DNA of 64,000 bases, taken from Escherichia coli (GTDB lineage Bacteria; Pseudomonadota; Gammaproteobacteria; Enterobacterales; Enterobacteriaceae). The stretch lies in NCBI RefSeq assembly GCF_022846255.1, contig NZ_AP025682.1; one strand, written 5' to 3'. This document shows, piece after piece, positions 2,546-5,500 of this stretch. Each line of letters starts with the position of its first letter. The first letter of the stretch is position 1. The position numbers are program-made.

Positions 2546-5500
2546 TAAGTCTGACTTTATCTGATTTAAAAATGCCAGCCTTCGGGCTGTAATGCCAGTC
2601 AGTTAAGCAACTGACTGGCTCTTTTTCGGGGCTGTGGGGTATTTCCAGGGCCTCTCCTTTACCACTCTCGGGAAGGCCCTTTCCCTTCTTGTCGGTAATT
2701 TCACAAGTTGTCCCATACTTGCAAGATCGCGCATCAGCTCCGGTATACGTCCCGGTGAAGCGCCCTGCAATGTCATCAGCATTCTCATCACCATTCCACA
2801 TGATTCTGAGAAACTCAGTTGATTCGGCCAGTAACCTTTCAGATGTTCCGCCATTTTAATCATCTGATATCTCACCAGATTATAAGCCAGTAAGACACCC
2901 CACAGCTCTTGCTCCACAAGCTCCGGTTTTTTACTTCTCAGCGTCAGCCTGCTCAGTTGCATCGTCTGTTTTATCTCCCTGTATCCCAGTTCGATTTCCC
3001 AGCGATGACTGTACAGATCCGCCATTTCTCCTCCGGGGAAGCGCATGGCGTCCGTCATCGACGTCAGCAGATGGCAGACTTTTCCTTTGCGCGTCACGGT
3101 CAGCAGGCGGGCTGTCACTTCATTTCCCAGTCCCGGCCACTTTTTTCGTGCCTGCGGGCTGGTTTTCAGCTTCACCAGATGATCGCCTTTACCCAGTTTT
3201 CTGATCTCTTCATATTGCGCTCCCTTTCTGAGAGGTATCATCCAGTGGCGGTGTTCTCCCGCCAGGCTCCAGGCATTTAACAGTCCCAGTGAGTAATAAC
3301 CTTTATCCATTAACGTCAGAGTGTTATCGCCGGTTTGTTCTATAAGTTGCTCAGCAAGCTCATTTTCGCTGTTCTTCATCGTGCCGAAGGCTGCAGCCGT
3401 CAGCAGATGGCTGGTCAGTTCCATCTGGCAGACCATTTTGACCTGCGGGTAGAGCGCCGGGTTCCCGGCATGTGTCTGGCGGGGGAAGGCTGCATCGTTC
3501 TCTGGTGTATCCGGTGTGCGCCAGAACACACCATCGATGGCCAGCAGGGTCAGGCCGCACCAGTGCGGATGCGGCGTGGCGTTATGCCAGAGCTGCGCTG
3601 TTTTCGTGAACACGCGGCGGACAGCCTCACTTCCCAGGCGCTGGCGGGCCTGAATAACGGCACTGGGGGCAACGAAGGGGCGATTGCCCGGCAGCATGAT
3701 GTCCAGGCGATTCACAATCTGGTGAAGAGGTTCTTTACGCTCAAGCGCCATGCCAACAATACACCAGACCATCATTTCGAGGGGAAGACGGCGCTTGCGT
3801 AGCGTTACAGTACCTGATTCGGCAAGGCAACGAGAGATGAGTTCGGGGTCGAGGTAATCCCCCAGAGAAGTCAGTGGGTTACGCAGAGAATCGTAACGGG
3901 ATACCAGATCAAGAGCCTGTCCAATGTGCATAAAAAAATCCGGAAACAAGTGAGCGTTTCCGGATTCTTACACAGCCACTGGATCGGTCAACTGATCCTT
4001 AACTGATCGGCATTACAGCCTTCGGGCTGGCATTTTTTATGGTTGAGTTACCAGCGACCGGACGCGCCGCCACCGCCAGAAGAACCGCCCCCGCCGCTAA
4101 ATCCGCCGCCACTTGAGCCGCCACCGGAACCGCTGTTGTCTGAATGATAACTTCTACCAGATGCTTTTTTCTGAAGTACACATAAACAGGTAAAGACCAT
4201 AATGGTGGTGAAAGTAAAAAAGAAGAAAAATACAGCAATGGAAAAAGTTTTATCGGAGAACAGGAATAAATCTAAAAGATAGATTGCTGAAATACAGACA
4301 CTGCTTTTACATGCGCGACAAAAATTACTGCCTTGATGAAAAAACCAGAAAGGGAAGAACATCACTGCAAATACCCAAAAAATAGCAAAGTAGTAATGAT
4401 CGCTGGAAGACGCTGATTCACTTTCTGAAGGATTAGCCGAATATTGGTGTTGTGAAGTGAGTTGGTTATTCAAAGCGATTATAGCTAACTCTAATCCCTT
4501 AGCTAATTTTTGTTGTTTAAATGCGGGTATCATGTTGCTACGGATGATATCTCCAGCCAGAGCATCGGTTACCTTTTCTTCCAGCCCATAACCTACCTGG
4601 ATGCGGACAGTGCGATCCGACCAGGCAACAATGATCAGTATCCCATCATTGCGTTTGGCATCTCCTAAACGCCAATTGTTAAAAACCCTTGTAGCATATT
4701 GTTCAATTGTCTCGTCTTTGGTTGTGGGAATAATTAATACAGCAATTTGTACTTGGGTATTATTGAAAATAGATTCTAACTTCCGCGTCAGTTCTTTCTT
4801 TTCTTGTGAGTTTAAGCTACTCGTAAGATCCGTAACTTGTTGCTGTAATTGTGGGACAATAGTTGGTTGGGCTGCAACAAAGGAACACACGAATGTGAAT
4901 ATTAGTATGAAATAGCGCATTATAAATGTCCCATTAAAGCTGGATAAATAAATTGACGGCGGCATCGGTAATTTGAGATTCGTTATAATTAAAAACGAAC
5001 ACAGAAAAAATAAGTATAATTTTGGTGAATGTTTTTGACATGATTAAATCCCTTTACTTTATTTATTTCTGACATAATACGTTACTCCCTTTTATTATTA
5101 ACGATCTGTTTCTCATTTTTCTTTAAACCTGCCTGTAACAGAATGTTAATAAGACATGATTGTTGTGGCAGGATCTGCAATAATTAACAATTATCCACTT
5201 CACAGAGAATGCTATGCAGTACCCGATTAACGAGATGTTCCAGACCCTGCAAGGTGAGGGTTACTTTACCGGCGTCCCCGCTATTTTTATTCGTTTACAG
5301 GGATGCCCGGTCGGCTGTGCCTGGTGCGACACCAAACACACCTGGGAAAAGCTTGAGGATCGGGAAGTTTCCCTTTTCAGCATTCTGGCGAAGACCAAAG
5401 AGAGTGATAAGTGGGGGGCTGCGAGCAGTGAAGATTTGCTGGCTGTCATTGGTCGCCAGGGATACACCGCACGGCATGTGGTGATTACGGGTGGTGAGCC

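Follow-up and report, generated by a model that had tools for sequence, protein, structure and literature searches.

IS4 in the eno/ygcG terminator-like hairpin of Escherichia coli: a recurrent insertion and the probable target preference of the element

Tn7 inserts at attTn7 downstream of glmS, class C group II introns insert after intrinsic terminators, and IS1397/ISKpn1 and IS110-type elements insert in REP sequences. Terminators and palindromes can serve as "safe havens" in which the disruption of coding sequence is avoided. Within the IS4 family, the target of IS231A is GGG-N5-CCC with bent A/T-rich flanks, and the target of Tn10/IS10 is NGCTNAGCN. For IS4 itself, a target consensus of AAA-N20-TTT is said to have been proposed in the 1980s in connection with the pheST attenuator, reportedly by Mayaux and colleagues in 1984. 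Our literature search returned neither the AAA-N20-TTT consensus nor an IS4 at the pheS attenuator.

The IS4 family is defined by a single-ORF DDE transposase with a Y(2)R(3)E(6)K motif, and its IS4 subgroup is described by a size of 1400-1650 bp, ends of the form -AATR--------WTW---- and a target duplication of 10-13 bp (De Palmenaer et al., 2008; PMC2266710, Table 1). The same study had already noted target-arm specificity and gives the duplication length of the family as about one helical turn. Mobile elements at extragenic palindromes are treated, at least in part, by Tobes and Pareja (2006; PMC1525189). A mutation-accumulation study (PMC5009759) recovered eight new IS4 insertions, four of them in non-coding DNA, and its main text is without a target analysis.

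The element and the site it interrupts

The window, i.e., the whole stretch of 64,000 nucleotides of E. coli DNA analyzed here, carries an intact IS4 between two short direct repeats at 2590-4015 (Table 1). An earlier note on this DNA had described a 1426-bp element with 18-bp imperfect terminal inverted repeats and an IS4-type transposase, and the description holds. The termini TAATGCCAGTCAGTTAAG and TAATGCCGATCAGTTAAG agree at 16 of 18 positions, and two such matches were seen in 0 of 100 shuffles. The minus-strand ORF running from 3931 to 2603 is uninterrupted and encodes 442 aa; its product matches NCBIfam NF033592 "IS4 family transposase" at 304.5 bits (cutoff 115) as well as Pfam Nterm_IS4 and DDE_Tnp_1, and a YREK motif in the Y(2)R(3)E(6)K form was found at residue 307. 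The gene is oriented toward eno. Three GATC sites (3982, 3994 and 4005) lie near the transposase-proximal end of the element.

Table 1. Features of the eno/ygcG locus, in positions of the window
Feature	Position	Strand	Basis
eno (enolase) CDS, transcript heading into the insertion site	1250..2548	+	432-aa ORF
Left target arm: A5 + TGC, lower part of the original stem	2568..2575	.	Read from sequence
Target-site duplication, left copy CAGCCTTCGGGCTG, 5-bp stem + TTCG loop	2576..2589	.	Repeat search
IS4, intact	2590..4015	-	Identity to other IS4 copies, length 1426 bp
Terminal inverted repeat, transposase-distal end	2590..2607	.	16/18 vs other end
Inward terminator-like hairpin GCCAGTCAGTT-AAGC-AACTGACTGGC, then TCTTTTT	2594..2626	+	Terminator scan and folding
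IS4 transposase CDS, 442 aa	2603..3931	-	ORF, profile matches and YREK motif
Inward hairpin, core CCGGAAAC/GUUUCCGG plus A-U pairs, then U7	3930..3966	-	Inverted repeat and folding
Promoter-like TTGACC-16-(TG)AAGAAT, candidate transposase promoter	3964..3991	-	9/12 consensus matches; a consensus match only, shuffles averaging 1.5 such sites in the region
Terminal inverted repeat, transposase-proximal end	3998..4015	.	16/18 vs other end
Target-site duplication, right copy CAGCCTTCGGGCTG	4016..4029	.	Repeat search
Right target arm: GCA + T6	4030..4038	.	Read from sequence
ygcG (TPM-domain protein) ORF	4048..4965	-	ORF, convergent with eno

At the DNA level, the element differs from the K-12-type insG copy (L013) at five of 1426 bp, K-12 MG1655-derived records being 99.6% identical to it, and four strains (L005-L008) have IS4 copies elsewhere that are 100% identical to it. 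Its size and ends (TAATGCCAGTCAGTTA and TAATGCCGATCAGTTA), its single-ORF DDE/YREK transposase and its near-identity to the reference K-12 IS4 DNA agree with the IS4 subgroup. The duplication of 14 bp is 1 bp over the 10-13 bp of the subgroup, which extends that range and is no argument against IS4 membership. The element is already known: RefSeq, which labels it "IS4-like element IS4 family transposase", annotates IS4 at eno/ygcG in hundreds of genomes.

The 14-bp flanking direct repeat reported earlier is likewise present, and its two copies (CAGCCTTCGGGCTG at 2576-2589 and 4016-4029) are 100% identical. They lie between the stop codons of the convergent genes eno (2548) and ygcG (4048); eno is annotated in the collinear RefSeq loci L001 and L003, and the ygcG CDS of relatives is annotated at 873 nt. 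In-silico removal of IS4 and one repeat copy restores ...TTTAAAAATGCCAGCCTTCGGGCTGGCATTTTTTATGG..., that is, A5-TGCCAGCC-TTCG-GGCTGGCA-T6, which folds into the perfect hairpin that the earlier note had reconstructed, with 13 pairs and z = -5.9 relative to shuffles. The same hairpin is found in IS-free eno-ygcG loci: strain FDAARGOS_497 (L003) matches the 361-nt reconstruction at 100% identity, and the empty site, with at least 80% of the reconstruction covered, is present in at least 4415 of the 5426 complete E. coli genomes. K-12-type strains are also empty at eno/ygcG (L019), and the single K-12 IS4 (insG) adjoins nanX (L013), consistent with the statement in the note that it is located elsewhere. 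With a G+C-rich stem-loop, a U-tract on both strands and convergent genes, the empty target is, by its predicted fold, a terminator-like bidirectional hairpin common to eno and ygcG. Rfam and tRNA scans of the window returned nothing at this locus. IS4 very probably transposed into the center of this palindrome, duplicating the 14-bp hairpin top.

Recurrence at eno/ygcG and target preference

Other strains share the insertion: eno/ygcG is a species-wide IS4 hotspot, and about 10% of complete E. coli genomes have the element there, in one orientation or the other. Among the 5426 complete genomes, approximately 476 carry IS4 and flank oriented as in the window, and 84 match both junctions of a construct built in the opposite orientation, at up to 100% identity. 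In one of the latter, AR_0013, the junctions are exactly 1426 bp apart and the same 14-bp duplication is present. Strain CRE444 (L015) carries a K-12-type IS4 variant (5 SNPs) in a K-12-type target allele with the loop TCCG, both duplication copies reading CAGCCTCCGGGCTG, and this target allele is seen empty in J53 (L019). Counted by orientation, target allele and IS variant, not by phylogeny, these insertions indicate that the eno/ygcG terminator has taken at least three independent insertions at one and the same nucleotide, the property by which we call it a hotspot.

One ancestral insertion, inherited vertically or spread by homologous recombination, is an alternative in which no hotspot is involved. 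Most occupied genomes share one orientation (476 vs 84), the sampled IS copies at the site differ by only 0-5 SNPs, and recombination among E. coli lineages is common. We nevertheless consider a single ancestor very unlikely, since the opposite orientation comes with an identical 14-bp duplication, CRE444 combines TCCG in both duplication copies with a different IS variant, and IS4 is seen in either orientation at pdxK/crr and tdk/adhE as well. Inversion between IS4 copies was rejected as a source of the opposite orientation, because such an event does not change which IS end faces eno.

The same observations bear on whether the 14-bp repeat and the restored hairpin could be coincidental or an assembly artifact, with no true duplication. 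A palindromic target could look repeat-like without being duplicated, and 14 bp is outside the published range of 10-13 bp. On the other hand, thousands of genomes have the exact site without IS4, the same junctions recur in hundreds of independently assembled complete genomes, the raiA/bamD site has a 14-bp duplication as well, and the loop SNP is in both L015 copies, as duplication predicts. The empty sites, the two orientations and the loop SNP refute this possibility for practical purposes, and we give it almost no weight.

Repeated insertion at the same nucleotide in both orientations makes the presence of IS4 at eno/ygcG homoplasic. IS4 at pdxK/crr and tdk/adhE is homoplasic too, and all three are unsafe as naive lineage markers. 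In IS4-rich strains, such copies are substrates for large rearrangements. The two junctions of the eno/ygcG insertion in IAI39 are now ~258 kb apart.

A search of the 5426 genomes found roughly 5500 IS4 places. Ten further distinct IS4 sites were compared, taken as one best match per genome record and therefore neither a random nor an exhaustive set: pdxK/crr, tdk/adhE, nupC/pdeA, aroA/ycaL, raiA/bamD, fieF/ogrK, galP/metK, an island site, the K-12 site and a prophage site. Eight of the ten share an order of A-run, 3-4 nt, a duplicated hairpin top of 11-14 bp, 3-4 nt and T-run, and have both the A and T arms and a hairpin of -15 to -25 kcal/mol; from their sequence, these eight look like bidirectional terminators. 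Duplications at all ten fall within 11-14 bp; raiA/bamD has 14 bp, and 11, 12 or 13 bp were seen with other IS4 copies. Two of the 11 distinct sites deviate: the K-12 site has the arms and a weak hairpin (-8.1 kcal/mol), and the prophage site (L025) is without a T-run. In the 62.5 kb of the window that remain when the IS is removed, a hairpin core within AAA-N17-20-TTT occurs at only two sites, of which the one at eno is by far the stronger (-14.6 vs -6.0 kcal/mol).

The target rule that these loci suggest rests on the IS4 copies compared here. IS4 would choose an A-run, ~3 nt, 11-14 bp that become duplicated, ~3 nt and a T-run, and such targets would usually hold a G+C-rich inverted repeat; this layout is that of a bidirectional intrinsic terminator. 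The cuts follow the A and T arms, and so the duplication becomes longer or shorter with arm spacing. IS4 here offers a clear natural case of a DDE transposon that targets terminator palindromes almost site-specifically, its duplication length depending on the A/T arms on either side. A strict need for a cruciform or hairpin in targeting was not adopted, the K-12 site being barely palindromic. Taken together, IS4 very probably moved into the eno/ygcG terminator by its own target preference, at a recurrent hotspot, and we infer that it is near-neutral there.

Predicted transcription across the interrupted terminator

The earlier note had stated that the insertion splits the terminator and leaves a truncated half-hairpin on each side. 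The terminator is indeed split, but the flanks are not bare halves: because the 14-bp duplication contains the whole hairpin top, each keeps a complete mini-hairpin with a 5-bp stem and a 4-nt loop. Each incoming gene, eno or ygcG, is left without its U-tract and without the bottom 3 bp of the stem. On the minus strand, the left target arm gives GCAUUUUU after the left mini-hairpin, and both outward remnants were flagged as terminator-like in a simple terminator scan (2589..2576 on the minus strand, tail GCATTTTTAA; 4016-4029 on the plus strand, tail GCATTTTTTA).

IS4 also brings hairpins of its own. The plus-strand hairpin at 2594-2619 (11 pairs, 6 of them G-C, tail TCTTTTTCGG in the terminator scan) is present in both the MFE and centroid folds and as an inverted-repeat match, and it sits in the path of eno transcripts, 5 nt inside IS4. 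The minus-strand hairpin at 3966..3937 has a 14-pair stem in the MFE and centroid folds and, with its U7, runs up to the transposase ATG (3931), where it would meet read-through transcripts from ygcG. This second hairpin went unflagged in the simple scan, as did the intact eno/ygcG hairpin of the empty site (L003). Both misses probably arise because the scan stretches the stem into complementary A/T tracts, and hairpins missed in this way were judged by folding instead.

All statements on termination here are predictions from sequence and folding. Because IS4 has an inward terminator-like hairpin at each end, eno transcripts would be expected to end ~30 nt later than before, at the IS4 hairpin near 2621-2626, and ygcG transcripts ~75 nt later, near 3932-3938, just before the transposase start codon. 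The outward remnants, each a 5-bp mini-hairpin followed by a T-run, would stop transcripts leaving IS4, including transposase transcripts bound antisense for eno. Read-through from eno that becomes antisense to ygcG, or from ygcG into the transposase gene, is predicted to be unlikely. The insertion would be near-neutral for eno and ygcG; it is an ordinary one, and probably nearly harmless.

Alternatively, splitting the terminator could have regulatory consequences. The earlier note had raised altered eno 3′-end formation, read-through into ygcG and transposase transcription antisense toward eno; mRNA stability could change as well, and the insertion could be kept for such an effect. Both genes do lose the lower stem and U-tract, the transposase gene faces eno, the outward terminator left toward eno has a 5-bp stem only, and an occupancy of ~10% means that the insertion is at least tolerated. 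Several features make this regulatory role unlikely. A strong terminator-like hairpin (11 pairs, then UCUUUUU) stands 5 nt inside IS4 in the eno direction, and a second with U7 stands in the ygcG direction. The occurrence of both orientations at the site disfavors selection for any one orientation-specific effect. For the shared target architecture of unrelated gene pairs, target preference is a simpler account than separate selection at every one of these loci.

Beyond the target preference of IS4 at this locus, a wider generalization is possible, though we hold it only tentatively and think it rather less likely to be right than wrong: IS4 may specifically seek out bidirectional terminators, with cuts set by the arms and self-compensating terminators, and live as a near-neutral resident in the terminators of convergent genes. 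Strand-transfer cuts would fall ~3 nt inside the A/T arms with no fixed stagger, giving duplications of 11-14 bp. The target might be distorted or extruded, although the non-palindromic K-12 site speaks against a strict cruciform. The inward terminators of IS4 would compensate for the one that it splits, and the outward remnants would end its own transcripts. This generalization was not found in the searchable literature. If true, repeated hits across E. coli would be expected at a few strong sites in each genome, among them eno/ygcG, pdxK/crr, tdk/adhE and raiA/bamD. The single locus is of little importance in itself, the element being known and its effect on eno or ygcG probably small.

Comparison with known elements

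The closest known system is the K-12 IS4 (insG), which has the same length, terminal repeats and 442-aa DDE/YREK transposase as the window copy. The two differ in their targets: the site of the K-12 copy is AAA-N20-TTT, weakly palindromic and duplicated over 12 bp, whereas the window copy lies in a perfect terminator hairpin with a duplication of 14 bp. Other IS4-family elements, namely IS231A and Tn10/IS10, resemble IS4 in that the target has two-fold symmetry and the flanking arms matter. However, the duplication lengths of IS10 and IS231 are essentially fixed, while those of IS4 range over 11-14 bp with the spacing of the A/T arms.

Tn7, class C group II introns and the REP-targeting ISs are like IS4 in their use of intergenic palindromes at gene ends. 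Their transposase families and means of recognition are different, including protein recognition by TnsD and RNA-guided or retrohoming mechanisms, in contrast to the plain DDE cut-and-paste of IS4.

IS10 and IS50 reportedly protect themselves against transcription from outside promoters, as Davis, Simons and Kleckner are said to have described in 1985. IS4 has a similar arrangement, in which a hairpin separates the IS end from the transposase start codon. This 3966..3937 hairpin of IS4 would form only in transcripts that enter from outside, because the candidate native promoter at 3991..3964 would start transcription within or after the 5′ arm. We infer that this minus-strand hairpin may act in self-protection against incoming transcripts. 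The means would differ from that of IS10, in which a fold-back occludes the ribosome-binding site, whereas the IS4 hairpin, with U7 after it, is terminator-like.

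The inserted element and its empty site

The element is flanked by a 14-bp direct repeat, CAGCCTTCGGGCTG (2576-2589 and again 4016-4029), and spans 1426 bp (2590-4015), both as the earlier note had described. It starts TAATGCCAGTCAGTTAAG and finishes with the reverse complement of TAATGCCGATCAGTTAAG, with 16 of 18 positions matching in the imperfect 18-bp terminal inverted repeats that had been claimed; no dinucleotide shuffle of the window yielded two ends matching this well. An uninterrupted 442-codon ORF (3931 to 2603, minus strand) scores 304.5 bits against NCBIfam NF033592 'IS4 family transposase' (cutoff 115), bearing out the IS4-type transposase, and contains Pfam Nterm_IS4 and DDE_Tnp_1 as well as the IS4-family motif Y-x2-R-x3-E-x6-K at residue 307. 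The DNA differs from the K-12-type insG copy at 5 of 1426 positions, and IS4 copies from other strains, at four different chromosomal locations, match it without a single difference. The RefSeq annotation of this feature reads 'IS4-like element IS4 family transposase', and length and end signature conform to those listed for the IS4 subgroup by De Palmenaer et al. (2008; PMC2266710). The earlier description and identification as IS4 are supported by sequence, profiles and the RefSeq label; judged by its sequence, the element is IS4 itself, intact and presumably active. Among 5426 complete E. coli genomes, ~2479 have an IS4 copy (at least 80% of the element covered), with a median of one copy per genome and a maximum of 32 places.

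Deleting the element and one repeat copy restores the hairpin, as had been proposed, and yields TTTAAAAATGCCAGCCTTCGGGCTGGCATTTTTTATGG. Strain FDAARGOS_497 has the reconstructed 361-nt empty region at 100% identity, and 4415 of the 5426 genomes cover at least 80% of it. Its RNA fold is a 13-pair hairpin (z-score -5.9 against shuffles) in which an 8-bp G+C-rich core is capped by a UUCG loop and extended by A-U pairs; with A5 and T6 at its sides and lying between convergent stop codons, the site has the predicted anatomy of a bidirectional intrinsic terminator. A simple terminator scan did not list this intact hairpin (1667-1690 of L003, the FDAARGOS_497 locus), which we attribute to the stem extension using up the T-run, and likewise left unflagged the IS4 hairpin before the transposase ATG (window 3937-3966). 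Such a scan overlooks hairpins in which the A and T tracts on either side are able to pair with each other, a caution for bidirectional terminators. The 3′ part of ygcG and its surroundings differ among strains, and the O157:H7 match ends at 75% of the empty-site query.

Further observations concern the rest of the window. Between ygcG and queE, strain 20 carries additional TPM-domain and LemA genes (4649-7801 of its locus, L001) that the window lacks (~4743-5072). Adjoining queE (window ~5970-12448) is a sucrose utilisation cluster, assigned by synteny with strain 20, with genes for a LacI-type regulator, sucrose-6-phosphate hydrolase, sucrose PTS IIBC, a porin and a kinase. Between cysH and iap (28537-28694, plus strand), a sok antitoxin RNA was recognised by Rfam RF01794 at 112 bits; collinear strain 20 has a Hok/Gef family gene at this position and a cas3 remnant, for which no counterpart aligned in the window. 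From rpoS to pphB/mutS (40077-48215), which we take to be the known rpoS-mutS polymorphic region, the window has ~8 ORFs and no alignment with strain 20, where a different gene set includes hydroxyarylic acid decarboxylase genes and a MarR regulator.

Recurrent insertion at eno/ygcG

The insertion in the orientation of the window was found in 476 genomes (junction-to-junction query covered to at least 80%). When the two junctions expected for IS4 reversed at the same position were constructed, 84 genomes contained both, with identities reaching 100%; in AR_0013 the distance between them is precisely 1426 bp and the 14-bp duplication is the same. Recombination between IS4 copies was ruled out as the source, since the IS end abutting eno cannot be flipped in this way; the reversed copies therefore go back to an insertion of their own. 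From the alleles at its junctions, a third independent event is visible in CRE444 (locus L015), where the target is of the K-12 type (loop TCCG with a T-to-A difference close by; J53, locus L019, has this allele unoccupied), TCCG stands in both duplication copies and the IS4 is the K-12-type variant (5 SNPs). Thus, ~10% of complete genomes are occupied, through at least three independent insertions at the same nucleotide, as counted from orientation, target allele and IS variant.

In IAI39 (L002, NC_011750.1), the opposite-orientation junctions lie ~258 kb apart, at 3333658-3333857 (eno side) and 3075169-3075368 (ygcG side), and the junction query matches 15 places; beyond the eno-side IS4, the place of ygcG is taken by a truncated glycosidase gene, ysgD and corA. 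This separation points to a large IS4-mediated rearrangement. The convergent-gene terminators pdxK/crr (loci L005/L016) and tdk/adhE (L006/L009) carry IS4 in both orientations in different strains, and they also appear to be recurrent hotspots.

Putative terminators at the insertion

Because the duplication holds the full hairpin top, each flank keeps a mini-hairpin with a 5-bp stem and a 4-nt loop, instead of the truncated half-hairpin that the earlier note had claimed for each side. Incoming eno transcripts read CAGCCUUCGGGCUG and then UAAUGCC, incoming ygcG transcripts CAGCCCGAAGGCUG and then UAAUGCC, and both have lost the U-tract. Five nucleotides inside its eno-side end, IS4 has an 11-pair hairpin on the plus strand, GCCAGUCAGUU-AAGC-AACUGACUGGC-UCUUUUU, flagged by the terminator scan and present in MFE and centroid folds; on the ygcG side (minus strand) an 8-bp core, CCGGAAAC/GUUUCCGG, is lengthened by A-U pairs, after which come U7 and, directly, the transposase ATG. 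We infer from these hairpins that IS4 carries inward-facing terminators, and thus the eno mRNA would be ~30 nt and the ygcG mRNA ~75 nt longer, with only limited read-through expected into the opposite gene or into that of the transposase. Facing outward, the remnants retain a T-run in the terminator scan (minus strand 2589..2576 then GCAUUUUU; plus strand 4016-4029 then GCAUUUUUU) and should stop transcripts leaving IS4, including those of the transposase that run toward eno in antisense; the stem left to these remnants is a weaker one of 5 bp. Regulatory damage to the neighbours, as initially suggested, is possible, and we consider it a less likely reading than containment by these hairpins.

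A promoter-like site (3991..3964, TTGACC-16-AAGAAT with TG upstream) would start transcription at ~3955-3959, the 3′ edge of the 5′ arm of the ygcG-side hairpin. Native transposase transcripts would then be without this arm and escape termination, an arrangement resembling the self-protection of IS10 and derived for IS4 from a consensus match. Three GATC (Dam) sites (3982, 3994 and 4005) lie in the final 35 bp of the transposase-proximal end and none within the first 135 bp of the transposase-distal end; by analogy with IS10 and IS50, methylation control is conceivable.

Target preference of IS4

The best IS4 place from each of 20 other records was taken and its target reconstructed, giving ten distinct sites beyond eno/ygcG (table).

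Gene ends at the insertion and other IS4 target sites
Feature	Window position	Strand	Duplication (bp)	Remark
eno end	2548	+		ORF and collinear annotation
ygcG end	4048	-		ORF and collinear annotation
pdxK/crr			12	both orientations
tdk/adhE			12	both orientations
nupC/pdeA			12	
aroA/ycaL			13	
raiA/bamD			14	
fieF/ogrK			13	
galP/metK			13	
island site			11	
K-12 site near nanX			12	arms present, weak palindrome (-8.1 kcal/mol)
lambdoid prophage site			12	A-run and hairpin, no T-run

Eight of the ten share one architecture (A-run, 3-4 nt, duplicated hairpin top, 3-4 nt, T-run) with predicted hairpin energies of -15 to -25 kcal/mol, and the reconstructed targets indicate that palindromes resembling bidirectional terminators are a general target of IS4. 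The right-hand cut falls 3 nt from the T-run in 8 of the 10 T-run-bearing sites, eno included (4 nt at the island site), and the left-hand cut 3-5 nt from the A-run. Duplication length is therefore variable and tracks the distance between the arms (N17 to N20). The 14 bp at eno/ygcG, 1 bp over the 10-13 bp published for the IS4 subgroup (PMC2266710), recur at raiA/bamD.

An exception to the two-arm rule is ECO_2_R (locus L025, IS4 at 1201-2626), between major capsid and FI genes of a lambdoid prophage, where the A-run is accompanied by a 5-bp hairpin. At tdk/adhE in FDAARGOS_1372 (locus L018, IS4 at 1501-2926), the IS4 variant is 98.2% identical and the duplication copies are alike except for a 4-nt loop that is inverted between them (CCCCAGAAGGGG versus CCCCTTCTGGGG), which may reflect inversion of a short hairpin loop once IS4 had inserted.

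Hundreds of RefSeq genomes already have an IS4 annotation at eno/ygcG. What is added is a hotspot occupied in either orientation and on two alleles of the target, terminator-like palindromes as the likely general target, duplication length that tracks A/T arm spacing, and putative inward terminators; these points are tidy but incremental. Within the 62.5 kb of the window without the IS, AAA-N17-20-TTT with a hairpin core occurs in only two places, of which the eno site is much the stronger. The target rule found here agrees with the AAA-N20-TTT consensus for IS4, which reportedly dates from the 1980s. The position of IS4 in the window is explained by a target preference already noted in the literature (PMC2266710).
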